Shown here one piece after another: positions 20,306-55,995 of a DNA stretch of 64,000 nt. How positions within the stretch are numbered: position 1 is the first letter of the stretch; each line of letters begins with the position of its first letter. Both the position numbers and the translations under genes were made by a program. The notes under the pieces are model-generated. The model made no database searches. It had not been told where the DNA came from and saw only the letters and a program-made list of their open reading frames with translations. Where the stretch lies: NCBI RefSeq assembly GCF_058153355.1, contig NZ_CM177019.1, one strand, 5' to 3'.

Positions 20306-22577
20306 GGAAAACTCCCCAGTGTTGCAGTGATGCCAGTGCCTGCTGTTCGAGTTGTTGATGATGTGCAATGGCTTGCGGTGGACAATGCAACGGCATTTGC
20401 AGCGCTGAAACGGGAAGCTGTGCGAGCTGGTAATGCTCAAGCACCTGATGCGCCAGCGTCCCGCGTTCTCGTGGTGGTAGCCAGGCCATCGCCGCGCGTA
20501 AATCGGGCAGGGCGTTAATAAAATCGTCGTCACTCAGTTGATTTAAATGACTACTGAAACCGGCGATAAATGCCGGCTGACAGGCCAGTTGATGGCGGGC
20601 CAGCGCCAGCAAACCGTGCAGCGCCTCGCCAGATTGTGCCGGGGATAATTGTGCCAGCATCGTCAGCGCCGCTTCGGCACTGGCGTTGGGATGTTCCAGA
20701 CGCATCAGCGCGCCAAGGGCCGCACCGCGATCCAGCGCTGGGGCATGAATCGCCTGACTGCGACGTTCCAGTAAGGCTACCGCCGCAGAAAGCGAAACGC
20801 CGGGTAAATTAACGCCGCTATTTAGATCGCGCAGGATATGGCAAAGCGCCTGCCAGCTATGCAGGTGAGCGTGAAACTCCTTCTCATCCGGCCTGCCGTT
20901 GGATTCACATAGCCACAGTGTGCGATCGATAGCCGCGTATAACGTCGTCTGTAATATCTGCGCGCCTTGCATACCGCTGATTTCATCGAGCTGCCACAAG
21001 GCGTAAAGCACTTCCAGCGCCTGGCCCATTTCGGCAAACTGATTTTCCTTGGCGATTAATAATGTGAGTTGTTCCAGTAATTGCTGACTGAAGGACGCCA
21101 GACCCGCTAACGCGGCCTGGCTAAGACATGTGGTGATGCCGCTGATTCCACCCGCGTCCAGCATATCGGCTTCTAATTTATTGCGTGCGGCCTCCTGGAG
21201 TGTGGCACCAAAGCAGGCGGCTTCAATCAATGCCGCATGTTGGCTAAGTGGCTGGGTTAATGTCCAGCGTTCTTCACCGTTGCCCGCCAGCGTCAGTGTA
21301 CTTCCTTGCTCGCGCACAATGCCGGGAATCTCCAGTATTACCAACTGATGTAGCACCTGACTTTGCGCCAGTCCATCGGGGGTAAAGCGATTTAAGGTAA
21401 GCTCCGCCGGAAGAGAGATTCCGGTACGTTCCAGTTCGTAGGTGACATCTTTTGGCAGAGGTGGCTGTGGCGTCGAGGGGGCAAGTTTACCGAATCCGTC
21501 ACCTGCTAATGTGTCTATCAACGTTACCAGTATCGGATCGGTATCGGGATGAATAACGTCGCGATAGCTCCACGGCAACGGCGCATTCAAGGCTTCTTTA
21601 ATCAGCGAGCCTGCTATGGCATCCAGCCAGTCAGTGCGTAACGGTAGTGTATGACCGCGCAACTGTGCCAGCGCCATCGCATGTAAATGAGCGGCAGCCA
21701 TATCCGCGGTTGAAGCAGGCAATTTGTGCTGGCGCAAACGGGTAAGAACCGTTTTTAGTAGTTGTTCACCTGCCTGCTGCAAGCCCCACCGCCAGCACCA
21801 GTTTTGCCAGACCGGGGCAGGCATTCCTGAAAGGTATCCTGCCAGCACATCAAGGCGCTTTTCACTGTATGGCGTGAGATAGCAACCTGTAACGGCATCA
21901 TCCTGTGAGAGCAATTCTGGCTTGTTAATTTCTTGCGGGCATTCGCGCCACATTTTTGCCAGTGCCGGAGCGTGCCAGCCTCCGCAGACGACTAATACGT
22001 CGCCATTATTTTGCTGCATCGCCCATGCAATCCAGCGGGCCATAAAGGCTTCGCGCTGACGATTGAGTGCATCGCCGGAGGCGTCGCCCCGCAGTTGTGC
22101 AAAATAGTGCGCCAGTGCAGAGGGTAATATAGTTTGCTGGCTTTCATCTTCGAACAAGTGATCCCACAAGGTGTCGCTGTTATCCATGCGGGTGGCACGC
22201 AGCAGAAAGGCCTGGCTTTCCTCTTGCATATCAGGCGAATCATCCTCTTCTTCACTTTGTGCCCAGCAAGGCAAATCGATGAAGTAAGTTTGTGCCTGAA
22301 TACGACGTGCGGCTTGTAGCGCCTGCCACTCCGGCGAAAATTCAGCAAATGGCGTCCAGGCACCACGCCCGGGGGCCGCACCGTCCTGATACTGGCAATA
22401 ACTGTAAATAGCTACCGGAAGCTGGTGGGCTAACAACAGTTCGTCTACCCGGTCATTAAAATCAGCCGGGCCTTCAATCAACACGTATCGTGGCCGCTGG
22501 CTTTCGATTAACGATTTCACCAGCCGGGCGCAGGCCGGACTATGATGCCGGATGCCGACAATTAACGGCTCGCTCAT
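20298..22577 (-). CDS. yehM: Large uncharacterised protein (759 aa) encoded between the MoxR ATPase and the vWA protein
   Basis: Start at MSEPLIVGIRHHSP…, 10 nt downstream of the yehL stop with GGAAAG upstream. I recognise no catalytic motif. Confidence 0.75.
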   Translation of the reverse strand: MSEPLIVGIRHHSPACARLVKSLIESQRPRYVLIEGPADFNDRVDELLLAHQLPVAIYSYCQYQDGAAPGRGAWTPFAEFSPEWQALQAARRIQAQTYFIDLPCWAQSEEEDDSPDMQEESQAFLLRATRMDNSDTLWDHLFEDESQQTILPSALAHYFAQLRGDASGDALNRQREAFMARWIAWAMQQNNGDVLVVCGGWHAPALAKMWRECPQEINKPELLSQDDAVTGCYLTPYSEKRLDVLAGYLSGMPAPVWQNWCWRWGLQQAGEQLLKTVLTRLRQHKLPASTADMAAAHLHAMALAQLRGHTLPLRTDWLDAIAGSLIKEALNAPLPWSYRDVIHPDTDPILVTLIDTLAGDGFGKLAPSTPQPPLPKDVTYELERTGISLPAELTLNRFTPDGLAQSQVLHQLVILEIPGIVREQGSTLTLAGNGEERWTLTQPLSQHAALIEAACFGATLQEAARNKLEADMLDAGGISGITTCLSQAALAGLASFSQQLLEQLTLLIAKENQFAEMGQALEVLYALWQLDEISGMQGAQILQTTLYAAIDRTLWLCESNGRPDEKEFHAHLHSWQALCHILRDLNSGVNLPGVSLSAAVALLERRSQAIHAPALDRGAALGALMRLEHPNASAEAALTMLAQLSPAQSGEALHGLLALARHQLACQPAFIAGFSSHLNQLSDDDFINALPDLRAAMAWLPPRERGTLAHQVLEHYQLAQLPVSALQMPLHCPPQAIAHHQQLEQQALASLQHWGVFHV

Positions 22578-22587
22578 GCATCTTTCC

Positions 22588-23676
22588 TCACGGCAGGCGG
22601 TGGCGAGCTTGATAATAAGCCTGCCAGTGAGCTTCTTTATGTGTAGCGACACGTTGTTCGAAGTAACGGCGCAGACGTGCGCGATCTTCTTCGTTATCTT
22701 TGACGATGGTTCCGGCAATACAGTCCACCAGGTCGGCTGGCTCCCCCGCGCGATTCGCTAAAAACCAGGCGCGGACGCCCACGGCGTGGGCCACGTTAAC
22801 GGCTTCAGCGGTGGACATAATCGCTGTAAGGGTATCCATTGACGTTTTCTTTTCGCCGTTGGCACGCAGATCGCGGAAGGTGCGTACCAGTAACTCAAGT
22901 ACCGCGTCAGGCACTTTATGCGGAATACCGCTATGGGCCAACAAACGCGCCGAAGCACTGGCGACCAGTTCCAGCTCCTGGGCGAAATCCATAATCGGAA
23001 AAACCGTTTCAAAATCGAATCGGCGTTTTAGTGCCGCGCTCATTTCATTAACGCCGCGATCGCGGGTATTGGCGGTGACAATAATATTAAAGCCTTCCCG
23101 CGCATAGAGCTGACTGGCTTCACCAGTGAGTTCCGGCACCGTCATAACCCTGTCAGAAAGCATACCTAACAGACAGTCTTGTACTTCCAGTGGTGTACGC
23201 GTTATCTCTTCAAAACGGACAATTTTGCCGTCGCGCATTCCCTGGTAGAGCGGGGCAGGGACCAGCGCTTCCGTTGACGGACCATGATTAATAAGCAGGG
23301 CGTAGTTCCAGCCGTACTTGATTTGATCTTCGGTGGTAGATGCGCCGCCCTGGATAGTTAACCCAGCATCGCCGCTAATAGCGGTTGCCAGTAATTCAGA
23401 CAGGAGAGATTTTGCGGTGCCAGGTTCCCCCACCAACATCAAACCGCGCCCGGTAGCAAGAGTGACTAACATGCGTTCGACAGCGGAGGGACTAATCACG
23501 ACTTTACGGCTGATATTTTGCGCGCTATCGCCAAGAATAAAAGAACGGGCCGCAGGCAAACTTAACTGCCAACCGGGCGGGCAAGGTGCGTTATCATTTT
23601 GCTTTAATTTTGCCAGTTCATCGGCGTATAACACAGCGGCAGGCGGACGCTGCAGATGATTATTCTGCGGTGACAT
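22588..23676 (-). CDS. yehL: MoxR-like AAA+ ATPase
   Basis: Walker A GEPGTAKS (codons at about 23407..23430); size and layout typical of MoxR/RavA-type ATPases that partner with vWA proteins. Confidence 0.85.
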   Translation of the reverse strand: MSPQNNHLQRPPAAVLYADELAKLKQNDNAPCPPGWQLSLPAARSFILGDSAQNISRKVVISPSAVERMLVTLATGRGLMLVGEPGTAKSLLSELLATAISGDAGLTIQGGASTTEDQIKYGWNYALLINHGPSTEALVPAPLYQGMRDGKIVRFEEITRTPLEVQDCLLGMLSDRVMTVPELTGEASQLYAREGFNIIVTANTRDRGVNEMSAALKRRFDFETVFPIMDFAQELELVASASARLLAHSGIPHKVPDAVLELLVRTFRDLRANGEKKTSMDTLTAIMSTAEAVNVAHAVGVRAWFLANRAGEPADLVDCIAGTIVKDNEEDRARLRRYFEQRVATHKEAHWQAYYQARHRLP

Positions 23677-23785
23677 ATATTCATCCCTGAAATGTATTAA
23701 TCAAATAAACGATATTTTACGCGCAATAAATGTTTGGCGCATTAGTTGTTTGAGCGGAAAATATCTGGAAAGCAGATCACAGTAA

Positions 23786-23867
23786 ATAAAAAAACCTGCT
23801 GGTGAGGCAGGTTCTTTTATTTACTACTTTGACGATAACTTGCTGATTGTGCAACATTTCGTACCAA
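23786..23867 (-). ncRNA. orzO: Putative OrzO-like antisense sRNA (type I antitoxin), about 80 nt
   Basis: Minus-strand promoter (-35 TTGCAA, 17-bp spacer, perfect -10 TATAAT), an 18-nt 5' segment complementary to the zorO-like 5' UTR with one G-U wobble, and an intrinsic terminator. Transcript ends are inferred. Confidence 0.5.
23793..23813 (-). terminator. Rho-independent terminator (stronger on the minus strand)
   Basis: 7-bp stem aacctgc/gcaggtt with loop tggtgag, followed on the minus strand by TTTTTTTATTT. Confidence 0.6.
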
Positions 23868-23874
23868 CGAATGA

Positions 23875-23903
23875 ATTATAACCATATCCACATCCCGTTG
23901 CAA
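23875..23903 (-). promoter_or_regulatory. Sigma70-type promoter for the putative sRNA
   Basis: -35 TTGCAA at 23898-23903, 17-bp spacer, -10 TATAAT (reverse complement of 23875-23880). Confidence 0.5.
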
Positions 23904-23925
23904 TTCACTAAGCGAGATTTATAAT
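23898..23925 (+). promoter_or_regulatory. Sigma70-type promoter for the zorO-like mRNA, sharing the palindromic -35 with the divergent sRNA promoter
   Basis: -35 TTGCAA at 23898-23903, 16-bp spacer, -10 TATAAT at 23920-23925; this predicts a 5' UTR of about 175 nt. Confidence 0.45.
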
Positions 23926-24106
23926 CGTGCCCGTTGGGAGGTTGTGCCGGATTGAACCAATTTCAAGTCCTGGCTGCCGGACGGGGGGTGCCGCAGGTGG
24001 TGCCCTGATCCGGAGAGCAACGTTTCGTACCAACATACGTAAACCAGTATCGACAGGCAGTGTAAGGGTAAGGTGCTGGTGTTGCGCTCCTTAATAAGGA
24101 GAGCGG

Positions 24107-24196
24107 ATGGACACGCTGACACAAAAGTCAACCGTGCTCATTGCCGTACTGGAGTTATTAGTGGCTCTGTTGCGGTTGATTGATTTGTTGAAGTAA
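24107..24196 (+). CDS. zorO: 29-aa hydrophobic peptide, type I toxin-like (ZorO/DinQ/TisB class)
   Basis: AAGGAG 5 nt upstream of ATG; translation MDTLTQKSTVLIAVLELLVALLRLIDLLK is a single amphipathic/TM helix resembling known type I toxins. Not in the supplied ORF track (below cutoff). Confidence 0.55.
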   Translation: MDTLTQKSTVLIAVLELLVALLRLIDLLK

Positions 24197-24217
24197 CGGG
24201 CAAATTGAAACGCATCT

Positions 24218-24241
24218 AAGGGGGAATACCGTTTCCCCCTT
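24218..24241. terminator. GC-rich hairpin between the zorO-like ORF and the 3' end of yehK
   Basis: aagggggaa-taccg-ttccccctt 9-bp stem; flanking T tract is weak. Confidence 0.4.
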
Positions 24242-24249
24242 TAATAAAG

Positions 24250-24570
24250 CTATTTTTCTATTTGTTGGATGAATATATTTTGTAGTTCACGATTAAAAAT
24301 TGCTATTACAGTTTTAGGTGATTCACCTCGTAATTTACGCTCATCAATAAATTCATCTCTTATATAAATCAACGCATCATTTATTAGCGGGTCGACATCT
24401 TCTCGATCACGTTGATGAAATGTTGGATGTAGCCGGAATCGCTCCAACCGGTAGACGGAACCAGTAAATAATTCAGAGCATTTATGGATCTCAAGTCTGA
24501 AGGAAAACGGATCTTCAGGTACAGGGACTTCATAATCATAAGTAGCGACCAGCTCTTTTTGCACGATCAT
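24250..24570 (-). CDS. yehK: Small uncharacterised protein (106 aa)
   Basis: Intact ORF 60 bp downstream of yehI on the same strand. Confidence 0.75.
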   Translation of the reverse strand: MIVQKELVATYDYEVPVPEDPFSFRLEIHKCSELFTGSVYRLERFRLHPTFHQRDREDVDPLINDALIYIRDEFIDERKLRGESPKTVIAIFNRELQNIFIQQIEK

Positions 24571-24630
24571 CGCTTTTCCCGGTGGTAAGTCGTGTTGATA
24601 ACGGGCAGTCGCATCACTGCCCGCTGTGTT

Positions 24631-27600
24631 TTAATGGAAAATGACGTCAGGTGCGCTTAACGCTTCACTCAAATCAAACGTATCGAGTTCGGCAAAAGTG
24701 ACAGATTTATTGTCACGGTACACTCGAAGAGAACGGAAGCTCATTAGCGCTTTGCTATCAGCACTGTAGTGGTTAAAACCGGGTGAAAACTTAAGGACCA
24801 GCCGATACTCGCCCAGGTCATAGACACATGCGTCCTCAAAACCTGACTCCCAGCCTTTGTATCGCATTCCCATAAGTTGCCCAACGGTTGCGGATTTACC
24901 TTCCCAGCGAGTCAGGCTGTTACTGGCTGACTCGTCAGGTGTGAGCAGCACTGTGCGCCGCATCAACTGGCGAAAAGGCGGCATAATTTCGTAATCGGCA
25001 AAAACCTGTGCAAATTCACTGCGCATTTCTGCTGTCATTTCTAACGGGTGGGCAATGCCAATCAGAGCATCCGCAGGCAGGTCAATTGGCTCATCTTGTG
25101 CGTTGCAGAACTCCCCCTCAGCGGCCACGCGAAAGGCGTTGAGTAAACGACGCGGTTCATTTGCCGGATAAACCGCCCATATTAATCGCTGAGTAACCAG
25201 GCGAGTAAAGGGATGATTAACAAACAGAGAATGAAAATCTGCCAGCGACCAGCGTCGGGTGGTGCGTAGGGCAGTTTCAAGACGCGGGAGCAGGTTTTTG
25301 CTCACCTGAGTGGCATCTTTTTTTAGCCCTTTTAGTCGGGCCAGTGCCTCGGGTGCTTTCAGCTGATCGTCATCGGCGCGCAACCGGGGAACACTTTTCT
25401 GGCGAACGTTTTGCTGATCAAAGATAACCGGGTTGAGGTTTTCATCGAAGCGAACGGTAAACTGCCGGGGTCCAAAATCAAATATCAACGCCTGCGGATC
25501 ATCCAGGCCCAGTGTTGGGACTAATCTGTCCGCTAACTCTTCCTGGCTTAGTCCACGATTTTCTGCGACCACCTGAAGAAATTCCGCCGCGTTATCACGT
25601 AAGGGACGGGATTTCGCCCGTTGCGATATATGATGCAGCTGTATCAGCGCCATATCATTATTCATCAGGGTAAGTATGTTCAGGCCACTGACGGCGCGGG
25701 CAGATTTGCCTTCCTGTGGCCAGGCGAGGATCTGTGTTGTCAGATCCCGAGCCGTGCTTTCGTCACCAAAGAGACTTAACGCCAAAAAAGCCCAGTTGTC
25801 TTTTGCGGGGGCGCCAGCCTGTTGCCAGGCGGTGAAGAGATCCCAGGCAAAAGCGGCCAGCGTTTGTGGCTGGCAGAACGTTTTCAGTTGTTCCAGCCCA
25901 CAATAAAAACGTCCGCCCTGGGTAAAGCGCAGCATTTCGCCGATAATTTCCAGAGCATCATCAGTAACATGTTGATTATTCGTGATAATTCTCGGTCTGG
26001 ACCACATTGTCGGATGCCAGAAATCAGGGGCTTTGGGAATGCGTGCCGGGTAAATGTCCATTGGACCCTGTTTAAGTAATTGCTCCAGGGCAGGCCATAC
26101 ATCTGTATGCTGCCAGCGGTTTGCCACGGTTTGCAGTAATTCGCCATGCCCTTGTTCATACAGTAAACGCAGAGCGCTGAGTGCCGCTTCGCTGTTATCG
26201 CCAGACCTGGCAAAGATTAATGGGATCAGCGCCGTAGCCGTATGCTCCGGCCATTGTAAAATCCACTGGCGAGCCAGATTACGCTGGCCCGCAAAACGAT
26301 GCCAGACGCGGGCAACGGGCAGCGCCAGTTCTGTTGCGCCAAAATGAATCAGCAGCGGAAATATCTCTTTGGGATGTCGGGCAAAGGCGGTGATTAATCC
26401 GGGCAAAGCATCGGTACCCAGGACACTTAACAGATATTCTACCCCGGTGTAATGAAAATCAGCCGCGACAATTTGTTGCCAGCACGATACCGCCATTTCG
26501 CGCGGCATTTGCGCGATAAGATACAGGTTCCATACTCCCCAACGCTTTTCATCAGTGTAATTAAATTTGCGTTGGAAAGTTCGCCACCCCTCCATCAACG
26601 CAACACTATCTTGTGCCAGTAATGCGCTGGCGGCCTCTTCCCGGTAGTGTTTATTTTCATTCTGTTTTGCCTGATAATTGAGCAATCTTCCTACTGAAGT
26701 ATGTGTCTCTAGTTGATCGGTATCCAGAGCATCCAATTGTCCTTTGAGAATAAACTCATTAAACTTCCACCTGTGATCTTCAAAACCTAATTCCCGCAAG
26801 AAGGTATCCGCCCCTCTGTTAGCAAGACGTTCGTCAAAAGACATGGCGCTAAAATGGTCAATTGCAGTTTGCTGTTCCGGCGTCCAGTGTTTATTCGGCG
26901 ACCTGTACGCTTGCGGTACAAGCGTAAGTTCAGGTAGCGAAAAGTGAGTTATGGAAGCCTTTTTCCTGCCACGCCACGGTGGTGAAACGAGGATTTCAGG
27001 CAGACTACTGTTATCGGTGCTATCAATAACCGGTTTTGGCGAAGCCGATAAATAACTATTCACCACTGCCCGGGCTTGAGTACTTAACGACGGGATCACC
27101 TCTTCTGCCAGTTGTGGCTGCGATGCCATCAGCGTTTGTAACAGCGTACGCCAGTATTCATCACGTGCTTTTTGCTGTGCAGGCAGCTTTTTGTCTTCGA
27201 TGATAGGATAACCAGGGCGCGTAGGGGGGGCTTTTAACGCCAGTAGTTCTGCCAGTGCGGCGAGCGTCGCATGGGGAAAGTTTTTACTGTATTTAGCCAC
27301 ACGCTGCAGGCTGGGTTTGTTTTTATCGGCAACTAACAGCAAGATGCGAATAACTTGCGGATGGTTAATTTGTACCAGCAGGCTACCGCAATCTTCTTTA
27401 TGGGCATACATCGCGAGGCGTGGAACGGCTGCAATTCCTTGTTCGCGCAAAAGGGCGGCGCAGGCCGCGTAGCCGAAGTGGTTTTCATGCGACATGTAGC
27501 TGGCTTCGCGATCGCTAAATATATCCTGGCTCCAGTAGCGTTCGAGTTTTCTCACCGCTCTGGGGTCATTAGCAACAACTTTTAACCACTCCTTAGAATG

Positions 27601-28287
27601 AAAATGAGTCCGCGGGCATTCAAGGCCTACCAACTCATTGGCGATTTCTGGTTTCTCCGGGAGGATGAGTGCAATAAAAGGACGGCGAACTTGGGGTAGT
27701 CCTGGCAGTGCGGCAATGAGTTTGTCGGCGCAACGCTGCCAGCAGCTTTCCTCTGCCAGAGAGAGAGGCTTACGCAGTCGGAGATCGAATTCGTTATAGG
27801 TTTCTGAGCGATAACCATAACCATAGCCATAGTCCTCCTTCTGATACTGCAATGTTACTACCAGAGGATCGTTCTCATAACACCGCGCAATAAACTGGCG
27901 TGCAATCACCACCTCAGTCGCATATTCCAGCCCCTCTTGTTGGACGATTTCGTCGAGCAACTGTTGGCTGTCATTTTGCGCGATACAGGCTAGCGCCGCC
28001 ATTGTCCGGGCCGGAATTGAGGGTTTGTGCTCGCCGATCAAGTTGATGGCTTGCGTAATGGCCGACTGCCACTCCAGTGAAAAATTTTCATAACGCCAGA
28101 CAATGTTTTTTTTCTTCTCAGCAATGTGTAGCAATTTATCACCCAGTGTCTGGATGAGGCTTTCAGTGATAACAGGCACCGGTTCGCCCGGCCAATTGCG
28201 ATGGCTGAGTGGTGTTTTGCCTTTTTTATATTTCAGTTCCAGTTGGGCGTTATCCGCCAGCCACGGTAATTCCTTGTCCATGCTCAT
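24631..28287 (-). CDS. yehI: Very large DUF4132-family protein, paralog of the two upstream MolR-like ORFs but lacking their N-terminal WGR-like domain
   Basis: 1218-aa ORF; central and C-terminal regions align visibly with the two upstream paralogs (for example …DFGPRQFTV.FDE.L.P… and …FADYE..PPF.QL…). Start lies 3 nt after the upstream gene's stop. Confidence 0.8.
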   Translation of the reverse strand: MSMDKELPWLADNAQLELKYKKGKTPLSHRNWPGEPVPVITESLIQTLGDKLLHIAEKKKNIVWRYENFSLEWQSAITQAINLIGEHKPSIPARTMAALACIAQNDSQQLLDEIVQQEGLEYATEVVIARQFIARCYENDPLVVTLQYQKEDYGYGYGYRSETYNEFDLRLRKPLSLAEESCWQRCADKLIAALPGLPQVRRPFIALILPEKPEIANELVGLECPRTHFHSKEWLKVVANDPRAVRKLERYWSQDIFSDREASYMSHENHFGYAACAALLREQGIAAVPRLAMYAHKEDCGSLLVQINHPQVIRILLLVADKNKPSLQRVAKYSKNFPHATLAALAELLALKAPPTRPGYPIIEDKKLPAQQKARDEYWRTLLQTLMASQPQLAEEVIPSLSTQARAVVNSYLSASPKPVIDSTDNSSLPEILVSPPWRGRKKASITHFSLPELTLVPQAYRSPNKHWTPEQQTAIDHFSAMSFDERLANRGADTFLRELGFEDHRWKFNEFILKGQLDALDTDQLETHTSVGRLLNYQAKQNENKHYREEAASALLAQDSVALMEGWRTFQRKFNYTDEKRWGVWNLYLIAQMPREMAVSCWQQIVAADFHYTGVEYLLSVLGTDALPGLITAFARHPKEIFPLLIHFGATELALPVARVWHRFAGQRNLARQWILQWPEHTATALIPLIFARSGDNSEAALSALRLLYEQGHGELLQTVANRWQHTDVWPALEQLLKQGPMDIYPARIPKAPDFWHPTMWSRPRIITNNQHVTDDALEIIGEMLRFTQGGRFYCGLEQLKTFCQPQTLAAFAWDLFTAWQQAGAPAKDNWAFLALSLFGDESTARDLTTQILAWPQEGKSARAVSGLNILTLMNNDMALIQLHHISQRAKSRPLRDNAAEFLQVVAENRGLSQEELADRLVPTLGLDDPQALIFDFGPRQFTVRFDENLNPVIFDQQNVRQKSVPRLRADDDQLKAPEALARLKGLKKDATQVSKNLLPRLETALRTTRRWSLADFHSLFVNHPFTRLVTQRLIWAVYPANEPRRLLNAFRVAAEGEFCNAQDEPIDLPADALIGIAHPLEMTAEMRSEFAQVFADYEIMPPFRQLMRRTVLLTPDESASNSLTRWEGKSATVGQLMGMRYKGWESGFEDACVYDLGEYRLVLKFSPGFNHYSADSKALMSFRSLRVYRDNKSVTFAELDTFDLSEALSAPDVIFH

Positions 28288-28290
28288 TCC

Positions 28291-31200
28291 TTATTCAAAC
28301 AGGGCTTCGATGTCGTTAATTAACTCGCTAGCGGTGATGTCATCGAGTGCGGAGAACTGCGCTTCCTGTGTTGAATTAATCCCCCAGCCATAGCTTTCTG
28401 CTTTGCCTTCCCATAGCCACAGCTTGCTTAAGAGTTGCTCGGCACTGAGTTCGGCTGGCGACATACCAACTGCAAATCCTTCATCGATTTCCATGATTAA
28501 TGACCAGCGGCCCAGAGGTTTGATCATCCAGCCGATCCAGCCACCGTCCTGCGGTTCACCACGCATCCAGCCTTTATTCGCCAGCCCCATTACCCGACCG
28601 CTCGGGCATTTTCTGCCTGCCCAGCGGGTCAATTCGCTGGCATTGCGCTCGGTTTCTGTCAGGGCGTAACTGTTACGGTCGAGCTGGCGGAACGGCGGTA
28701 GCAGTTCGTAGTCGGCAAAAAGCTGACCAAAGGCGGCAGCATCCGTGGGTGATATTTCCAGAACGTGAGGAATGCCAACAGAGATATCGCCTTCCGGCAG
28801 GGTGAAAAGATCATCGTCAGCGGTGCTGTAGCTGTTATCTTCCGCCACACGGAAGCACGCCAGTAACTGGTTGTCTGCGCTATAAATGCCCCAAATCAGA
28901 CGGCGGGTTAAGTGGCAGACCAGCGGATGCTCAACCAGAAAGAGCTGAAAGTTTTCTGGCGACCAGCGGCGGCGCAGGCACATGGCGGATTCCAGCCTTG
29001 CCACCTGCTGGGCGGCAACGGTACGCGCATCTTTTTTCAGCAGTTTGTAGCGGTTAACTGCATCGTTCGCTTGAGTTTCATCATCGCTTTTGTTCGGTTT
29101 AGGCAAGTCTTTCAGGCGGCTGCCGGAAGCATCACGCACAAACGGTTTTAAGGTTTCATCAAAGCTGACGGTGAACTGCCGTGGCCCGAAATCCAGCAGC
29201 AGCGAACCGTTATCATCCAGACCGAGATCCGGTGCTAACCGGTCTTCAAGCTCCGCCACCGTGAGTTCGCGGCTCTCGGCAATGTCGGCAATTTTTTCTT
29301 TTGCCCGCTCCTGTAATGCTTTGAATTTCAGTTTCTGGGCGATGCCGTTAAGCTGCATCAGGGCGATATCACTACCGATAGCAGCGAGAATATCCAGCCC
29401 GACGGTGGCGCGTTTATGCTGGGATTCACCAGGCCAGGCGCGAATCAAAGGCGTCAGTTTGCGGGCGGTATCATCGTTGCCGAGAACACCTAACGCAGTG
29501 AACGCCCAGCTTTCTTTCGACGGTGCGCCAGCGGTCTGCCAGGCGGTAAACAGATCCCAGGCAAATTCAGCCAGTGAGTCGGCGGTACAGGCATCTTTCA
29601 CCTGCAATAACCCCGCATACAGAGCCTCTTCCTGAGGGAAGCGGAGCATTTCACCGAGGTGGAGGAGGGCGTTATCTGGCAGTGATTGGGCGTTTGCTTT
29701 TAATACCGGGCGTGTCCAGAGCGATGGCTGATAAAAGGCCGGAAGTGTCGGGATTTTAGTCGGGTGATTATCTAAGGGATCGAGCGCAAGTAGAGCGTTC
29801 ACCGCATCGGTTACTTCCGGCTGGTTATAACGCTGGGCGATTTCTTGCAGTAATGACGGATAACCACTTTCAATCAACATACGTAAGGCGGCGCGGGCGT
29901 TATCCTGGGCTTCACCAGCTTTGCCGAGTGCCGCAGGCAACAGGCCGATAATGGCATGTTCCGGATATTTCAGCAGCCAGGTGCGGGCGTCTTGTCGTAG
30001 AGTTTTGAGTTTGTTAAAGGCGCGGGCGACGGCAGGAGCCAGTTCCGTTGCGGCAAAATAATTAGCAACCGCAAAACCTTCTTGAGGGTAGCGTGAAAAC
30101 GAGTGTAGAAAACCACTCATACCTGCCAGTCGCAAATAAAGCATGACAGGTTTTACCGCGGTATGCGGCTCTTTGCTGAGAAACTCCCATAGTTTAATCG
30201 CTGTTTGCATAGGTAAAAAGGGAAGTGAGTTGAGATGCCACTCCCCCTGATACGGTGCATGGTGGGCTTTAAACATTTGGATGAGTGTAGCGAAGTCCTC
30301 ACGTTCCCATGCGTCAATTGCCGAGTCAGAAGCGCCGATATATTTATATGTGTCAAAATCCCAGCGGCGATACCCCAGCGAGTAAAGGAAATCTTTAGCA
30401 CCTTCACCTGGCTTATGCGATTCCCAGTCCCAATGAGTTTGAAACTCTTTTGCTTCTGTGTCGGTTATTGTGCATATGGATTTGAGTTTGAGCGGTGCTA
30501 AATCCAACACCGGAATCGTCGATTTTTTCTTTTTCGAAAGCCAGGGAGGTAAGACTAATACGGCTGGCAGTAGAGCGGCGCAGGCATGGTTTGACGGTTG
30601 TATCAGTTGTTGCTGGCATGATTTCAGCACTTCAACTGCGGCTGTCGAGAGCCAGGGAGTGACCTGTTCTGCCAGTGCCGGTTGCGAGATAAGCATCGTC
30701 ATTAGCATAATGCGCCAAGTATTCTCTTCTTTTTGCGCAAGAAGTTCCGCCAGTGCCGCCAGTGCTGCGTGTGGGAACGCAGCGCAAGCTTTCGTCATCC
30801 GATCGTGACAGCGTTTAGTTTGCCCGGCTACACGTATGAGCAGTGTTAATGCGAACGGATGATTGATATGACGCAATACATCTGCGCAGTAGTCACTTGC
30901 GGCATAGGGAGCAAATCTGGGCAGGGCTGCAACACCTTGCTCCTGTAATACGGTGGCTGACAATATCGCACCACAATAGTAATCATCAAAAATGGCATAT
31001 GGCTCGTGATATTTTTCTAATGAGGCAAGAATGTGCTCATCAGTCGCCACTATTTTTAGCCACTCAAGCGAGGGTAATTTTTTTTTCCCCAGTAGACGCT
31101 GGGCAATTTCATGTGCAATTTCTGGTTTTTCGGGTAATAACAAAGCAATTAATGGTTGCCGCCATTCTGGAATATGTGGAATTGCGGCAATAAGTTTTTG

Positions 31201-48964: not shown

Positions 48965-49129
48965 GATAATCAATAGTTTTTACCATATGAATAATGGATG
49001 TGGATTGTTTCTTTTTCATTTCTGATATGGAGTACAAAATGGGGTCACAATGAAGAAGCGATGAATGGAGGCGAGCTTGCATCTGCAAGCCTCTTCCCCT
49101 AATCTGGCACAAAATATAGAGATTCAACC

Positions 49130-49258
49130 AAACGACTCGGGGTGCCCTTCTGCGTGAAGGCTGAGAAATACCCGTATCACCTGATCTGGATAATGCCAGC
49201 GTAGGGAAGTCACGGACCACCAGGTCATTGCTTCTTCACGTTATGGCAGGAGCAAACT
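49130..49258 (+). ncRNA. TPP (THI-box) riboswitch in the thiM leader
   Basis: cggggtgcccttctgcgtgaaggctgagaaatacccgtatcacctgatctggataatgccagcgtagggaa matches the canonical thiM aptamer; the expression platform runs into the thiM ribosome-binding site. Confidence 0.8.
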
Positions 49259-50899: not shown

Positions 50900-51727
50900 A
50901 TGAAACCAATGCAGCTGAGAATCACCAGTCGAAAAAAATTCACCGCTTTATTATGCGCTCTTGGGCTAATTTCCATCGTTGCAATTTATCCGCGTCAGAC
51001 GGTGAATTTTTTCTATTCGACAGCTATTCAGATTAAAGACTACATCCACTTCTACGGTTATCGCCCGGTTAAATCTTTCGCTATTCGCATTCCTGCCAGT
51101 TACACCATTCACGGAATAGATGTTTCGCGCTGGCAGGAGCGGATCGACTGGCAGCGGGTGGCTAAAATGCGCGATAACGGTATTCGCTTGCAATTTGCCT
51201 TTATCAAGGCGACGGAAGGCGAAAAGCTGGTGGACCCGTATTTTTCGCGTAACTGGCAACTAAGCCGCGAAAATGGCCTGTTGCGTGGGGCGTATCATTA
51301 TTTTTCCCCGTCGGTATCCGCCTCAGTTCAGGCGCGATTATTTCTGCAAACGGTGGATTTCTCACAAGGCGATCTCCCTGCCGTGCTGGACGTAGAAGAA
51401 CGGGGAAAATTATCGGCAAAAGAATTACGCAAGCGGGTAAGTCAGTGGCTAAAAATGGTCGAAAAACGCACGGGAAAAAAGCCGATTATTTACTCAGGAG
51501 CCGTTTTTTATCACACCAATCTGGCGGGCTATTTCAATGAATATCCGTGGTGGGTGGCTCACTATTATCAACGTCGTCCGGACAATGACGGCATGGCCTG
51601 GCGCTTCTGGCAGCATTCCGACCGTGGACAGGTAGATGGCATTAATGGTCCGGTGGATTTTAATGTGTTTAATGGCACGGTGGAGGAGTTGCAGGCATTC
51701 GTTGGTGGGATTAAAGAAACGCCTTAA
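50900..51727 (+). CDS. yegX: Glycoside hydrolase family 25-like (lysozyme-type) exported protein
   Basis: N-terminal hydrophobic segment followed by a GH25-like sequence (…HGIDVSRWQERIDWQRV…); start codon is uncertain by 3 codons. Confidence 0.75.
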   Translation: MKPMQLRITSRKKFTALLCALGLISIVAIYPRQTVNFFYSTAIQIKDYIHFYGYRPVKSFAIRIPASYTIHGIDVSRWQERIDWQRVAKMRDNGIRLQFAFIKATEGEKLVDPYFSRNWQLSRENGLLRGAYHYFSPSVSASVQARLFLQTVDFSQGDLPAVLDVEERGKLSAKELRKRVSQWLKMVEKRTGKKPIIYSGAVFYHTNLAGYFNEYPWWVAHYYQRRPDNDGMAWRFWQHSDRGQVDGINGPVDFNVFNGTVEELQAFVGGIKETP

Positions 51728-51778
51728 ATAAGAAGCAGTGATATACTCCCACCAGACTCCCTGGCAGGAAAAAGACAA

Positions 51779-52525
51779 ATGGAACAAGCGCATACCCAGC
51801 TGATTGCCCAACTGAACGAACGTATTTTAGCGGCGGATAACACGCCGCTTTATATTAAGTTTGCCGAAACGGTGAAAAATGCCGTGCGCAGCGGGGTGCT
51901 GGAACATGGCAATATTTTACCCGGCGAGCGCGATTTAAGTCAGTTAACCGGCGTTTCGCGTATTACGGTGCGCAAGGCGATGCAGGCGCTGGAAGAAGAG
52001 GGCGTGGTGACACGTTCGCGCGGCTACGGCACGCAGATTAATAACATCTTTGAATACTCGTTAAAAGAAGCGCGAGGATTTTCTCAGCAGGTGGTGTTGC
52101 GCGGGAAAAAGCCCGATACGCTATGGGTTAACAAGCGAATGGTTAAATGCCCTGAAGAGGTGGCGCAGCAATTGGCGGTCGAAGCGGGTAGTGATGTCTT
52201 TTTGCTTAAGCGTATTCGCTATGTTGATGAAGAAGCGGTCTCTATTGAGGAGTCGTGGGTTCCGGCGCATTTAATTCATGATGTTGATGCCATCGGAATC
52301 TCTCTTTATGACTACTTCCGCAGTCAGCATATTTTTCCAAAGCGTACCCGTTCCCGCGTTAGCGCCCGGATGCCGGATGCCGAGTTTCAGTCACATATTC
52401 AATTAGATAGTAAAATACCGGTGCTGGTGATCAAGCAAGTGGCGCTTGACCAACAGCAACGGCCTATTGAGTACAGCATCAGCCACTGTCGCAGTGATCT
52501 ATACGTTTTTGTGTGTGAGGAGTAG
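51779..52525 (+). CDS. yegW: GntR/HutC-family transcriptional regulator
   Basis: N-terminal winged HTH (…SVRITVRKAMQALEEEG…) and UTRA-like C-terminal domain. Confidence 0.8.
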   Translation: MEQAHTQLIAQLNERILAADNTPLYIKFAETVKNAVRSGVLEHGNILPGERDLSQLTGVSRITVRKAMQALEEEGVVTRSRGYGTQINNIFEYSLKEARGFSQQVVLRGKKPDTLWVNKRMVKCPEEVAQQLAVEAGSDVFLLKRIRYVDEEAVSIEESWVPAHLIHDVDAIGISLYDYFRSQHIFPKRTRSRVSARMPDAEFQSHIQLDSKIPVLVIKQVALDQQQRPIEYSISHCRSDLYVFVCEE

Positions 52526-53464
52526 TTCCTCGCGGGTTGGCGCGCAATCACCGCCGCGATGCCCGACAACCCACGACGCCACTGCATTGCCCAGCAATAC
52601 GGCATCCGCCAGTGGCAAACCAGAGGCCAGTCCAGCTAATACGCCACCTGCATGACTGTCGCCCGCCCCAATGGTGTCTACAACTTGCGTTGGAAATGCC
52701 GGGATGCAGCCAGAAGCGTTATTGCTGAAATACCATGCGCCTTCTTTATCCAGACGGACGATCAACGACGCGGCAAATTTCTCCTGCCATTGTTTGCCAA
52801 GTGTTGTTATCTCTGCGGATAAAGCAAAACGTTCGGCGGCAATCTCAGCCTCTTGACGATTGAGTGACACTAAAGGTCGACAGGCCATGATCCGCGCCAG
52901 TAATGCATCCGGGATATCGCCAATACGTGGGCCAAAATCGATGAACGGCGTCACGTCTTGCAGACTCTCCAGCCATTCCACTAATAATTCACCGCAGGGC
53001 GAGGCCAGTTGATAACCGGAAAAATAGAGCAGGCTGCCAGGCGCAACGGTTAATCGCGCCAACCATTCGCGATTCCACTGATTTTCCACACCACTGAACG
53101 ACATAAACGTGCGTTCACCATCAGGCTCAACCAGCGCCAGACACCAGCCGTTATCGCCTTCGGCGTTATCGATGAGGCTGATTAATCCTTCTTTCGCCAT
53201 CCGGTTACGAATAATTTCCGCCCACACACCCTGGCCGAGCGGCAGGGCATTACCCGCTTCGATACCGAGGCGATTTAACGCCACGGCAATATTCAGTGCA
53301 CAGCCGCCAACGTTAACGCTCTGCTGTTTCAGTTCGATATCGCACCCACGCCAGGGTAGGGCATAAGCGTCGGCGATCACATCAATGACCGCCGCGCCGA
53401 CGACCATCACCGGCTGACGCGTGGTTAATTCAGGCAGCAGCGTGTGTAATCGAGCGCCGCTCAT
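52499..53464 (-). CDS. yegV: PfkB-family carbohydrate/nucleoside kinase
   Basis: PfkB-like motifs (DTIGAGDSHAGG); its 3' end overlaps the 3' end of convergent yegW by 27 bp. Confidence 0.8.
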   Translation of the reverse strand: MSGARLHTLLPELTTRQPVMVVGAAVIDVIADAYALPWRGCDIELKQQSVNVGGCALNIAVALNRLGIEAGNALPLGQGVWAEIIRNRMAKEGLISLIDNAEGDNGWCLALVEPDGERTFMSFSGVENQWNREWLARLTVAPGSLLYFSGYQLASPCGELLVEWLESLQDVTPFIDFGPRIGDIPDALLARIMACRPLVSLNRQEAEIAAERFALSAEITTLGKQWQEKFAASLIVRLDKEGAWYFSNNASGCIPAFPTQVVDTIGAGDSHAGGVLAGLASGLPLADAVLLGNAVASWVVGHRGGDCAPTREELLLTHKNV

Positions 53465-54465
53465 ACCGCCTCCCGTTGTTGGCGATACTTCGCCAGCGCC
53501 GTGGCGTAATGATTAAAATCAAGCTGATTTACCGCATCCAGCTCCGTCTTAAACGCAGGATCGATAGCGTTAACGCCATGCAATGCGCCGCAAATCGCCG
53601 TCGCCATAGCGCCGATGGTGTCTGTGTCGCCGCCAAGATTGGCGCACAGAATGGCGCAGCGATTCGGGTCGGTTTGTGCCAGTTCAACCAGCGCAATGGC
53701 GCACGGAACGGACTCAATAGTGCTGGTACCTGCGCCAATGACCTGGTAAAGCTGTTCGCTGGCGGATTCGGTGCCGTCGGCATTGCGCACAATTTTCAGC
53801 GCAATCTCCAGACGTGCTGCCAGTGAGGCGCTGAAGGTAGTGATGCGTTTTTGCTGTGCATGTCGCGCAATTGAAGGCAGTGAATCAACAATCGCTGACC
53901 AGCTTTCTCCGTCAATGGCACGAGAAACCGCCCATGCGATGACTACCGCGCCTGCCACCGCCAGATCGGATTTATGAGTCGGGCTGGACGCCAGCGCTAC
54001 ATCATCAATAAAGGAATCAACATCACGCGCCGGAAGCAAACAACCTAATGGCGAGACGCGCATCGCTGCGCCGTTAGTCACGCCATTGTTTTCCAGTTCA
54101 GCAACGGGTTTACCGTCGCGAATGGCGTTAAGCGCAATCTTCGAAGTTGGGCCAAGCACGTTTTTGTTAAAGGCGTTGAAACGCAGCGCCCAGTCGAGAA
54201 TATTACGCCCAATCAGATCCGGATCGATCTCGCCTTCACGTTCCAGTAACGCATCCGCCAGACACAGCGCCATTGAGGTATCGTCGGTGAATTCGGCGCG
54301 GTTAAAATAACAGGCCGCGTTATTCTCCTTTGGTCCAGGCAGAAAACGGTCAATCCAGCCAAAGTGTGCTTTAACGCGGCTGCGTGGCCAAAGCTCGGAG
54401 GGCATCCCCATCGCATCCCCTAACGCCTGCCCATAAAGAGCACCGAGAATACGTTCTGTTTTCAT
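53461..54465 (-). CDS. yegU: ADP-ribosylglycohydrolase-family protein
   Basis: 334-aa ORF with ADP-ribosylglycohydrolase-like N-terminus; ATGA overlap with yegV. Confidence 0.75.
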   Translation of the reverse strand: MKTERILGALYGQALGDAMGMPSELWPRSRVKAHFGWIDRFLPGPKENNAACYFNRAEFTDDTSMALCLADALLEREGEIDPDLIGRNILDWALRFNAFNKNVLGPTSKIALNAIRDGKPVAELENNGVTNGAAMRVSPLGCLLPARDVDSFIDDVALASSPTHKSDLAVAGAVVIAWAVSRAIDGESWSAIVDSLPSIARHAQQKRITTFSASLAARLEIALKIVRNADGTESASEQLYQVIGAGTSTIESVPCAIALVELAQTDPNRCAILCANLGGDTDTIGAMATAICGALHGVNAIDPAFKTELDAVNQLDFNHYATALAKYRQQREAV

Positions 54466-55739
54466 TTAACTTCCCCTTGTGTCAACGCAATATCGCGATC
54501 ATCGACCTTGATAGCCGTAATTTCGTTGTCGGATTCGCGGAAAAAAATCATGAACAGCACGGCGATAATGGCAATCATCACCGCGCCGAAAGTCCACATC
54601 CCGGACCAGTTGAAAGTCAGTCCGTTTACCGGTTCCGGATAAGCGAACATTTTCTCCATCATCACACCGCCAAGACGATAGCCGAGCAAACTGCCGAATC
54701 CCTGGCAGCAGAGCGTGATCAGCCCCTGCGCAGCGGTACGCATATGCACGGGGGCTTTTTTATCGACATAGATGTAAGCGGTAACGTAGTAAAAATCGTA
54801 ACTTACTCCATGCAGCAAAATGCCAAGGAACAGTAACGCGTAGGTGAAATATTCATCCGCACTACCGTAAATAAAGAAGCCATAGCGGATCGCAGCGGTG
54901 ACCAGACCAAGTAATAATACCTTTTTGATACCAAAGCGTTTGGTAAAAAACGGCAATGCCAGCATAAAGAAGATTTCAGAGAACTGGCCGAGCGTCATCC
55001 AGCCGGTGGCGTTTTTCATGCCGACTTCTGTCAGATAACCGTTGGCAAAGATGTAATAGAACGCCAGTGGCATCGCAAACAGGAATGAACAGAAGAAAAA
55101 GACGAGGAAGTTTTTATCGCGCAGCAGGATCAGCGCATCCAGGCCTAGCATGACTTTAATGTCCATTTTGCCGGTGCTTTTTGGCGGCGTGTCGGGCAGG
55201 AAAAACGCAAACACACCGAGTAATGCGGAGCTTCCGGCGGTAATTAATAGTGGAATATTGGTCGGTGAGATATCGTCATATCCCAGCATCTGAGGCAGGA
55301 ATCCGCAGACCAGGCCAGAGGCAATCCAGCCTATAGTCCCCAGTACGCGAATGCGCGGAAAATCGCGCTCCACATCCGGGACGTTAGCAAACGCGATGCT
55401 GTTAGTCAGCGCAATGGTCGGCATATAGGTCAATGAGTAGGCCAGCAGTAACGGGAAGAACCCGGCAAAAGTAGTCTGTTGCGCAGCGAAATACATCAGC
55501 ACCGCACCAGCGAACATCAATACCGCCAGCACTTTCTGCGCCGAGAAAAAGCGGTCAGTGATGGAGCCAACCAGAATTGGCGACAGGATCGCCGCAATGG
55601 CGGTACAGGCATACGACCAGCCAATTTCCCCGGCACTAAAACCGCTTTTACTTAACCACAACCACAATGGCACAAACCACGCGCCCCAGATAAACCATTC
55701 AACAAACATCATGAACGACAGCTTTGCTGTTGTTTTCAT
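54462..55739 (-). CDS. yegT: Nucleoside:H+ symporter-family transporter (MFS)
   Basis: 425-aa 12-TM ORF; ATGA overlap with yegU. Confidence 0.8.
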   Translation of the reverse strand: MKTTAKLSFMMFVEWFIWGAWFVPLWLWLSKSGFSAGEIGWSYACTAIAAILSPILVGSITDRFFSAQKVLAVLMFAGAVLMYFAAQQTTFAGFFPLLLAYSLTYMPTIALTNSIAFANVPDVERDFPRIRVLGTIGWIASGLVCGFLPQMLGYDDISPTNIPLLITAGSSALLGVFAFFLPDTPPKSTGKMDIKVMLGLDALILLRDKNFLVFFFCSFLFAMPLAFYYIFANGYLTEVGMKNATGWMTLGQFSEIFFMLALPFFTKRFGIKKVLLLGLVTAAIRYGFFIYGSADEYFTYALLFLGILLHGVSYDFYYVTAYIYVDKKAPVHMRTAAQGLITLCCQGFGSLLGYRLGGVMMEKMFAYPEPVNGLTFNWSGMWTFGAVMIAIIAVLFMIFFRESDNEITAIKVDDRDIALTQGEVK

Positions 55740-55995
55740 CTTTTAATTCCTTCATGACAGGTAATGTAAGGTACGCGATGACAATACCATTTAATAATAC
55801 CTTTTAAATACCTTTGCGGTGAAAACTTGACCGCGGTAACATTTTTTCTGATGAATCGAGCCAACAGAAAACGCTGAAAAAACATCCAAAAGATGGAAAA
55901 ACTCGCCTGTAACGACCAGGATTATGATTGCCCGCAAAAGGCGGGCCAGGACAATCCATAGCCGATATCCAATCGGAATTTACGGGAGCATAGTA

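Follow-up and report, generated by a model that had tools for sequence, protein, structure and literature searches.

The stretch of DNA analyzed here (the window) comprises 64,000 nucleotides of contig NZ_CM177019.1, from the NCBI RefSeq assembly GCF_058153355.1, and the subject of this work is the group of yeg genes found at positions 50900–55739, above all the operon yegTUV and its regulator gene yegW (ggaR). Open reading frame (ORF) calling placed five genes at this locus. Three are on the minus strand, yegT (54462–55739, 425 amino acids, the first gene of the operon), yegU (53461–54465, 334 amino acids) and yegV (52499–53464, 321 amino acids), and their products matched the Pfam families Nuc_H_symport (606 bits), ADP_ribosyl_GH (PF03747, 226.5 bits) and PfkB (187 bits), i.e., a transporter of the nucleoside:H+ symporter (NHS) type, a member of the ADP-ribosylglycohydrolase (ARH) family and a sugar-type kinase. 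The other two are on the plus strand: yegW (51779–52525, 248 amino acids), that codes for a protein with a GntR (59 bits) and a UTRA (122 bits) domain, and yegX (50900–51727), whose product matched GH25 (187 bits). All five proteins scored far above the curated cut-offs, and both the ORFs and the families agree with those proposed in an earlier interpretation made from the letters alone (the sequence-only reading). The locus is not new, since it corresponds to the already catalogued yegTUV operon of Escherichia with its repressor YegW (GgaR).

The genes are tightly packed. The tetranucleotide TCAT appears on the plus strand at 53461–53464 (yegU/yegV) and at 54462–54465 (yegT/yegU), which is ATGA on the minus strand, so that the start of yegU overlaps the stop of yegT and the start of yegV overlaps the stop of yegU. 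The presence of ATGA at both junctions supports the translational coupling that had been suggested for the operon. In addition, the convergent genes yegV and yegW overlap by 27 bp at their 3' ends (52499–52525, from the ORF coordinates), as had also been noticed before. Across 22 species of enterobacteria this last overlap had the same length. The ATGA-type overlap of 4 bp was recurrent as well, being found between yegT and yegU in 19 loci and between yegU and yegV in 26. Because they recur in this way, the overlaps are, as judged by sequence comparison, conserved and not accidental. The yegV–yegW pair has been listed among the excludons supported by RNA sequencing (PMC12288877).

We found the locus in 5424 of the 5426 complete E. 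coli genomes, with the same five genes annotated beneath the match. The ratio of nonsynonymous to synonymous polymorphism (pN/pS) against K-12 was between 0.02 and 0.09 across all five genes, indicating that they are intact and under purifying selection. The window itself belongs to a divergent Escherichia lineage (checked at 20000–30000 and 50900–55739). The stretch yehK–yehP was 90–95% identical to 5361 of the 5376 matching E. coli records (top match 96.8%), while the yeg region had 95.3% identity to K-12 (top match 97.8%) and the five yeg genes showed a synonymous divergence of 0.12–0.26 from this strain.

The label "uncharacterised" given to the module by the sequence-only reading is outdated for two of its products, i.e., the regulator, described in 2024 as GgaR (PMC10819704), and YegT, for which a crystal structure has been published (PMC11979927). 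Its statement that the substrate is not established holds. According to the GgaR paper none of yegT, yegU and yegV has a clear function (PMC10819704), YegV was still listed as an uncharacterised sugar kinase in UniProt in 2025, and no NCBIfam equivalog reached its cut-off for YegU, YegV or YegW. The 120 nearest homologues of YegU all carry the name "ADP-ribosylglycohydrolase family protein" and nothing else. A literature search on yegU/yegV, and on ARH in combination with PfkB and nucleoside hydrolase, with PnuC or with riboside, retrieved no biochemical assignment, nor any established function unrelated to the one that had been proposed.

The context of yegU was followed over a wide range of microbes. 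An exhaustive search gave 239 clusters of relatives at E <= 1e-30, and a synteny set of 80 loci (one genome per species) was assembled, in which ORFs were called and then clustered. These loci span Enterobacterales, Vibrio, Aeromonas, Chromobacterium, Sutterellaceae, Dialister, Bacilli, Lactobacillales, Clostridia and Actinobacteria. A YegV-like kinase was located beside the ARH gene in 61 of the 80 loci, from Proteobacteria to Firmicutes, and a GntR regulator in 55. Furthermore, the best 150 relatives of YegU included 14 proteins of about 600–760 residues; ten of these long relatives were scanned, and nine turned out to be fusions of ARH and PfkB domains (four in the order PfkB-ARH and five in the order ARH-PfkB) and one a double ARH. 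The kinase halves of eight fusions matched YegV with E values from 1e-14 to 1e-37. The adjacency in 61 of 80 loci, the fusions (nine out of ten) and the U/V overlap in 26 loci indicate that YegU and YegV are functionally linked, and the ARH-PfkB pair is the conserved core of the module.

Some of the loci showed variants of this arrangement. A metagenomic one had an added gene of the PNP_UDP_1 nucleoside phosphorylase family. In two loci of Bacillota and Blautia (L077 and L086) a second ARH-domain protein of ~710–855 amino acids, with a long C-terminal extension of unassigned family, was encoded directly upstream of the YegV-like and YegU-like genes. In three others, from Micromonospora, Bacillota and Marinimicrobia (L079, L083 and L085, respectively), the ARH gene had the same orientation as a GntR regulator that precedes it by a few genes, and no PfkB kinase was present; L079 and L083 contained an S-component of an energy-coupling factor (ECF) transporter, and L083 and L085 a protein related to AIR synthase (PurM/ThiL-like). 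To judge from their gene content, a non-homologous enzyme may have taken the place of the kinase in these three loci.

The transporter is the part of the module that changes. YegT scored 651 bits with TIGR00889 (cut-off 446) and has the GxxxD motif of transmembrane helix 10 (G311-V-S-Y-D315), plus E255 and K267, as in the crystallised K-12 protein. The 2025 structure showed an NHS-family fold and the same motif in helix 10; by isothermal titration calorimetry the K-12 protein had no significant binding of uridine, adenosine, cytidine or guanosine (U, A, C or G), and the residues that contact uridine in NupG are not conserved in YegT (PMC11979927). NHS transporters similar to YegT were found in 33 of the 80 loci, all of them from Enterobacterales, Vibrio or Gilliamella. 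Another 17 loci had an NCS1 transporter (PF02133) and 14, of the Clostridia type, had a PnuC-type one (PF04973) with scores above the TIGR01528 cut-off. ECF components flank one of the PfkB-ARH fusions and occur in three further loci, and two Sutterellaceae loci had an ATP-binding cassette (ABC) system with SBP_bac_6. The transporter beside the ARH-PfkB pair is, therefore, swapped among the non-homologous NHS, NCS1, PnuC, ECF and ABC types across lineages. These partner families are all carriers of nucleosides, nucleobases or vitamins of the ribosyl and heterocyclic kinds. Uptake by Pnu transporters combines facilitated diffusion with metabolic trapping by a kinase (PMC5749112), and this suggests an intact imported compound as the substrate of the kinase.

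The hydrolase YegU covered positions 1–285 of the 287 of PF03747, with a score far over the cut-off of 26.2 bits. Its AlphaFold model was all-helical, with a predicted local distance difference test (pLDDT) value of 97.6, and had the compact all-alpha fold with a 13-helix core. Searching structures with Foldseek we recovered ADP-ribosyl hydrolases and uncharacterised ARH-like proteins only, and no ARH with another known substrate. The top match was MJ1187 (1t5j), with template modeling (TM) scores of 0.82/0.90, which is itself uncharacterised, and ARH3 and DraG gave values of 0.75–0.78. In the alignment with human ARH3 all seven residues of the active site, the ligands of the binuclear metal site and the glutamate of the Glu-flap, were kept (E41, T76, D77, D78, D314, D316 and T317 in ARH3 correspond to E24, T60, D61, D62, D280, D282 and T283 in YegU). 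Over 40 relatives of YegU, D61 and D282 were invariant and T60, D62, D280 and T283 were at least 90% conserved. The catalytic, metal-coordinating and adenine-binding roles of the ARH3 residues are known (PMC7050489, PMC8319183), and in ARH enzymes the cis-2'',3''-diol of the ribose is held on two metal ions while cleavage takes place at C1'' (PMC7050489). Since the seven catalytic and metal residues are kept, YegU is predicted to be an active ribosyl-C1 hydrolase. The adenine side of the site is different: Phe143, Ser148 and Tyr149, that bind adenine in ARH3, correspond to Asn126, a gap and Val129 in YegU. By this alignment YegU is devoid of ARH3-type adenine binding, a comparison that covers the mode of ARH3 and not those of DraG or ARH1. 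The description of the module as "ADP-ribose-related" is then doubtful, and we predict from the alignment and the model that YegU is not an ADP-ribose binder of the ARH3 type.

A similar pattern of kept and replaced residues was found in YegV. The catalytic aspartate (D269) is within the GAGDS motif and D28 corresponds to Asp16 of RbsK, the E. coli ribokinase. The residues of this enzyme in contact with ribose are Asn14, Asp16, Gly42, Lys43, Asn46, Glu143 and Asp255 (PMC9604405), which align with V26, D28, G54, C55, N58, A154 and D269 of YegV. The ones that contact the cis-diol and the 5'-OH of the ribose (Asp16, Gly42, Asn46 and Asp255) were invariant in all 60 YegV-like neighbours, while Lys43 was replaced by Cys in 57 of the 60 and Asn14 by V, F, M or I also in 57; the column of Glu143, occupied by Ala in YegV, was variable in the family. 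In ribokinases Lys43 and Glu143 show strict conservation and fill the space taken by the nucleobase in nucleoside kinases, and in the pseudouridine kinase AtPUKI the position equivalent to Asn14, two before the diol-binding Asp, is Ile10, that lines the base pocket (PMC7797080). With the two residues that block the base pocket replaced and the diol and 5'-OH contacts kept, YegV looks like a riboside kinase of the nucleoside-kinase type and not like a ribokinase. Its scores against the ribokinase equivalogs were low (83.1 bits for TIGR02152, cut-off 299.65, and 61.2 for NF008353, cut-off 341).

As to the regulator, YegW has an N-terminal GntR winged helix (residues 29–87) and a C-terminal UTRA domain (residues 108–242), which is the architecture of the HutC subfamily. 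It is 98.8% identical in amino acids to the K-12 protein, and its top match among solved structures was YvoA (E 3e-22). In K-12 the protein has been characterized as a single-target repressor, acting on yegTUV alone, by chromatin immunoprecipitation on microarrays (ChIP-chip), gel shift and Northern blot (PMC10819704). A single peak was seen genome-wide by ChIP-chip, and gel shifts located a strong site in the 190-bp region that precedes yegT, with a second, weaker one at nucleotides 571–869 of the yegT ORF (probe-5) (PMC10819704). Deletion of ggaR raised a single 3.3-kb yegTUV transcript about 30-fold, and ADP-glucose at 10–100 uM, though neither ADP nor glucose, freed GgaR in vitro from the spacer between fbaB and yegT (PMC10819704). 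The ggaR mutant accumulated 2–3 times more glycogen and grew poorly on glucose minimal medium, and a yegV deletion is listed among the mutants with reduced glycogen (PMC10819704).

Upstream of yegT we found what is predicted to be the GgaR operator (55783–55815, minus strand), a footprint made up of three direct repeats AAWGGTATT spaced by 11–13 bp that start at –76, –65 and –52 from the ATG of yegT (55807–55815, 55796–55805 and 55783–55792). When 21 species ranging from Escherichia to Vibrio were aligned, this block was the clearest conserved feature upstream of yegT, and it lies inside the published 190-bp fragment, for which binding was shown with the K-12 protein. The motif AATACCWTTT, derived from these same data, appeared four times in the 64 kb against 0.29 expected. 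Downstream of the repeats there are inverted GGTA half-sites (55760–55774, minus strand; GGTAAT at 55760–55765 and GGTAC at 55770–55774), and the GTACC element is also conserved, as the columns "G.ACC" of the 21-species alignment. A consensus scan, i.e., pattern matching only, gave a promoter-like site for yegT at 55794–55823 (minus strand) with 9 of the 12 consensus positions, in which a –35 TTCACC (55823–55818) and a –10 TATTAT (55799–55794) are separated by 18 nucleotides. The repeats fill this spacer and overlap the predicted –10, an arrangement that would fit repression by occlusion. The assignment of the GGTAT repeats to GgaR is thus a prediction based on conservation.

Inside yegT there is another operator-like triple repeat, TTTGGTATCAAAAAGGTATTATTACTTGGTCT (54900–54935, minus strand; nucleotides 805–840 of the ORF), which falls within the probe-5 region and is probably the weaker second site of the published gel shifts. 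This sequence is largely dictated by the amino acids FGIKKVLLLG that it encodes, and from genus to genus it differs at third codon positions, so we do not claim that it has been selected as a site. Other regulators and upstream regions were observed in the synteny set. Four loci of Edwardsiella and Serratia (L035, L038, L039 and L049) have the YegU homologue adjoining a GntR regulator with 37–40% identity to YegW, and in one from Brenneria (L033) only a regulator-like match of 62 residues was found beside it; in all five the homologue has no transporter of any kind, and no kinase, next to it. In Aeromonas lacus (L040) and Serratia oryzae (L041) distant YegW-like regulators are divergent from the ARH gene, and tandem direct repeats (four copies of ACTGGAC and two of TTGGAC, spaced by ~11 bp) are found about 170 bp upstream of it. 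The clostridial loci L057 and L058 carry the palindrome ATAACTTATTATAATAAGT instead of tandem repeats. Rfam scans of the 18 loci with no adjacent GntR gene detected no riboswitch beside the ARH-PfkB genes, and gave just signal recognition particle (SRP) RNA, tRNA and a distant thiamine pyrophosphate (TPP) element.

We propose that yegTUV codes for the catabolism of a non-canonical riboside, and consider the chances that this model is right to be about even. The operon would be normally silent, held off by GgaR bound to the three GGTAT repeats over the yegT promoter. YegT would import by proton symport a ribofuranosyl compound other than U, A, C and G, YegV would phosphorylate the 5'-OH of the intact riboside, and YegU, with its ARH fold and complete binuclear metal site, would hydrolyse the bond at C1 of the ribose to give ribose-5-phosphate and the free aglycone. 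GgaR would be released by a ligand related to the pathway, and the physiological one may be the phosphorylated intermediate. The transporter, glycohydrolase and kinase had already been seen in the sequence-only reading as the logic of a pathway for a ribosylated substrate, and the results support this view. That the substrate is a riboside, which of the two enzymes acts first and what the products are we have inferred. That the kinase would act first is suggested by the nucleoside-type pocket of YegV, by the PnuC partners, which rely on trapping by a kinase (PMC5749112), by the substrates of the characterised ARH enzymes, all of them phosphorylated at the 5'' position of the ribose that is cleaved (PMC7050489), and by the PfkB kinase of the Salmonella operon STM4065-67, which phosphorylates an intact riboside.

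More tentatively, and with clearly less confidence than for the E. coli operon, the YegU/YegV pair could represent a widespread form of small-molecule riboside catabolism, in which an ARH-fold enzyme cleaves the riboside 5'-phosphate made by a PfkB kinase of the nucleoside type. Such a route would be spread over gut Enterobacterales, Lachnospiraceae, Sutterellaceae, Bacilli and others, and if it were real the effects of ADP-glucose and on glycogen would be secondary. In view of the PnuC partners, the substrate could be a pyridinium compound similar to nicotinamide riboside. It could also be a riboside with an alpha linkage, for example from the breakdown of ADP-ribosylated macromolecules, given the alpha-specificity of ARH1 and ARH3. 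Two neighbouring genes were considered as hints to the aglycone and discarded. A PncA-like gene of the isochorismatase family (L073, 11119–11658), 1.25 kb downstream of ARH-PfkB-PnuC genes, was found in one locus only and scored below the cut-off, and a GMP reductase gene (L051, 6925–7911), 90 bp upstream of the ARH gene, was not recurrent and also belonged to a single locus.

Several observations weigh against the riboside model. The linkages that ARH1 and ARH3 specifically cleave are alpha-1'' (PMC7050489), whereas the common nucleosides are beta, so either the substrate is an unusual anomer or the stereochemistry of YegU is different. In Edwardsiella, Serratia marcescens and Brenneria, the homologues of YegU (61–68% identity) have neither a kinase nor an NHS transporter nearby, and since no kinase gene is close the hydrolase of these bacteria would not need an adjacent one. 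The loci with swapped transporters hold YegU homologues of only 40–57% identity, which may not share the substrate of YegU. In the YegV family 15 of the 60 members have Glu at the column aligned to Glu143, and the best named matches of YegV are ribokinases (E 8e-15 among solved structures and 2e-23 with TIGR02152). The published effector, ADP-glucose, and the glycogen phenotypes are not directly explained by the model. Finally, its substrate and chemistry are deduced from sequence and analogy.

In an alternative reading the hydrolase acts before the kinase. YegT would import the riboside, YegU would split it into free ribose and aglycone, and YegV, as a dedicated ribokinase, would turn the ribose into ribose-5-phosphate, in the manner of the Rih nucleoside hydrolases together with RbsK. 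Besides the ribokinases among the matches of YegV and the Enterobacterales that retain YegU and the regulator with no adjacent kinase, which fits a hydrolase able to work alone, there is the precedent of the rus loci of Bacteroidetes, where ribokinases are joined to nucleoside hydrolases or ADP-ribosylglycohydrolases (bioRxiv 10.1101/574913), which also counts against the kinase-first order. We regard this order as rather unlikely though, because YegV is far below the ribokinase cut-off (83 vs 300 bits), E. coli already has RbsK, trapping by a kinase of the imported molecule is implied by the PnuC-type partners (PMC5749112) and the known ARH substrates carry the 5''-phosphate. It is even less probable, indeed very improbable, that YegU is a true ADP-ribosyl hydrolase, undoing the ADP-ribosylation of a protein, nucleic acid or small molecule as DraG, ARH1, ARH3 and Tri1 do. 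The ARH fold is confidently predicted, the nearest solved structures with known function are ARH3 and DraG, and the catalytic and metal residues are all present. However, no ADP-ribosyltransferase or target gene was found nearby, the gene is translationally coupled to those of a transporter and a sugar-type kinase (with PfkB fusions elsewhere), the ARH3 adenine-binding residues are missing, and YegU scored far below the equivalog cut-offs of DraG (82 vs 337 bits) and Tri1 (72 vs 490 bits).

The role in the metabolism of ADP-glucose and glycogen proposed by Saito et al. (2024), in which yegTUV would act on or supply ADP-glucose and GgaR would sense it, has experimental data behind it. As described above, ADP-glucose and not ADP or glucose releases the repressor, the ggaR deletion increases both the yegTUV mRNA and glycogen, and the yegV deletion is among the mutants with reduced glycogen. 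Nevertheless, we think that it is quite improbable as the function of the enzymes. We see no plausible route by which an ARH hydrolase or a PfkB kinase would synthesize ADP-glucose, and the same pair of enzymes is found elsewhere with PnuC, NCS1 and ECF transporters, which are not carriers of nucleotide sugars. The effector trials covered ADP-glucose, ADP and glucose but not ADP-ribose, other ADP-sugars or riboside phosphates, and the authors themselves state that the functions of the enzymes are unknown. The poor growth of the mutant on glucose minimal medium makes it possible that the phenotype is indirect. Glycogen synthesis rises as growth slows, according to the same paper (PMC10819704), so the glycogen phenotype of the ggaR mutant may be secondary to a growth defect caused by the 30-fold derepression.

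The remaining gene, yegX, had been included in the module by the sequence-only reading, and this did not hold up. Among the 80 species it adjoins yegW in E. coli only, between thiD and yegW, and owing to this restricted adjacency we have rejected it as a member; it looks, from synteny, like a lineage-specific insertion. In RefSeq its start is at 50909 of the window, three codons downstream of our ORF call. The product matched the GH25 profile over its whole length (1–180 of 180 positions), its Asp/Glu motifs (GIDVS..., ...LDVEE) align with those of the Bacillus anthracis GH25 protein 2wag (E 1.6e-33), it matches PHROG endolysin families (E 1e-46) and its N-terminus has a hydrophobic anchor. 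From these features it looks like a membrane-anchored muramidase-like protein of the phage GH25 type. The flanking genes thiM/thiD and fbaB were also rejected as functional partners, since they flank the operon in Enterobacteriaceae only. A TPP riboswitch is annotated before thiM in K-12 and would be at about 49128–49224 of the window (by offset from L087 2630–2726); it is part of the neighbouring thiMD operon, outside the yeg genes.

Nearly every E. coli genome carries in yegT, yegU and yegV three genes with no assigned function, and the only physiological link published for them, glycogen, comes with no enzymatic explanation. What is new in this analysis is the coupling of YegU and YegV, the swapping of transporters, the residue patterns and the operator footprint. 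They reduce the question to whether a kinase of ribosides works ahead of a phosphoriboside hydrolase of the ARH type, and they supply an operator prediction and a list of candidate classes of substrate. We know of no function of the ARH family so far other than the removal of ADP-ribose. If the model is true, this would be its first catabolic role away from ADP-ribose, and would reveal a nutrient taken up by many gut bacteria through four or five types of transporter; if the model fails, yegTUV stays as an ordinary orphan catabolic locus.

Each component has well-known relatives. YegT is a full-length NHS member like NupG and XapB and superposes on NupG with a root mean square deviation of 1.57 A (PMC11979927), but the identity with NupG is about 27% and, as mentioned before, the uridine contacts are not conserved. 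YegW shares the GntR and UTRA domains, and the role of local repressor of an adjacent catabolic operon, with NagR/YvoA, DasR and PhnF (PMC10819704). It differs from these HutC-type regulators in the predicted operator, where GGTAT is directly repeated three times at intervals of about one helical turn and accompanied by an inverted GTACC, in place of a single palindrome, and in the reported effector, a nucleotide sugar. YegU has in common with ARH3, ARH1 and DraG the all-alpha fold (TM-score 0.75–0.82) and the seven metal and catalytic residues, but its partners are a transporter and a kinase instead of an ADP-ribosyltransferase, and the adenine clamp of ARH3 is absent. With RbsK, YegV shares the PfkB fold and Asp16, Gly42, Asn46 and Asp255, and differs in having Cys55, Ala154 and Val26 in place of Lys43, Glu143 and Asn14.

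There are also relatives at the level of the whole module. The rus loci of Bacteroidetes combine kinases of the ribokinase family, nucleoside-cleaving enzymes that include ADP-ribosylglycohydrolases, and a transporter, and are thought to release ribose from varied ribosyl nutrients (bioRxiv 10.1101/574913). They differ in their polysaccharide-utilisation-locus layout with SusC/D-type outer-membrane parts, in their response to ribose and in a logic of hydrolase and then ribokinase. In the pseudouridine pathways PsuK (YeiC)/PsuG (YeiN) of E. coli and PUKI/PUMY of plants, a PfkB kinase phosphorylates at the 5' position an intact non-canonical nucleoside that is then cleaved by a dedicated glycosidase into ribose-5-phosphate and base, the kind of product proposed for YegU (PMC7797080). 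The kinases of these pathways also keep the Asp that binds O2' and O3' and the catalytic Asp, and have a hydrophobic residue at the position of Asn14 of ribokinase (PMC7797080). However, the bond broken by PsuG, an enzyme of the IndA/PsuG fold, is a C-C one, whereas YegU is an ARH-fold binuclear-metal hydrolase, and the kinase-first order has been shown for Psu and is only deduced for yegTUV. In Salmonella enterica, the genes STM4065-4066-4067 code in a single operon for a permease, a PfkB kinase and an ARH-family protein, like yegTUV, and the kinase has aminoimidazole riboside kinase activity on the intact riboside, according to PMC3161100 (which cites Dougherty & Downs 2003). It is a different locus made of different subfamilies, and the structure of the aminoimidazole riboside kinase was absent from the matches of YegV in the PDB at E <= 1e-5. 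A repressor gene, stm4068, is reportedly involved there as well. By analogy, therefore, yegTUV resembles PsuK/PsuG in its logic and Salmonella STM4065-67 in its gene content.

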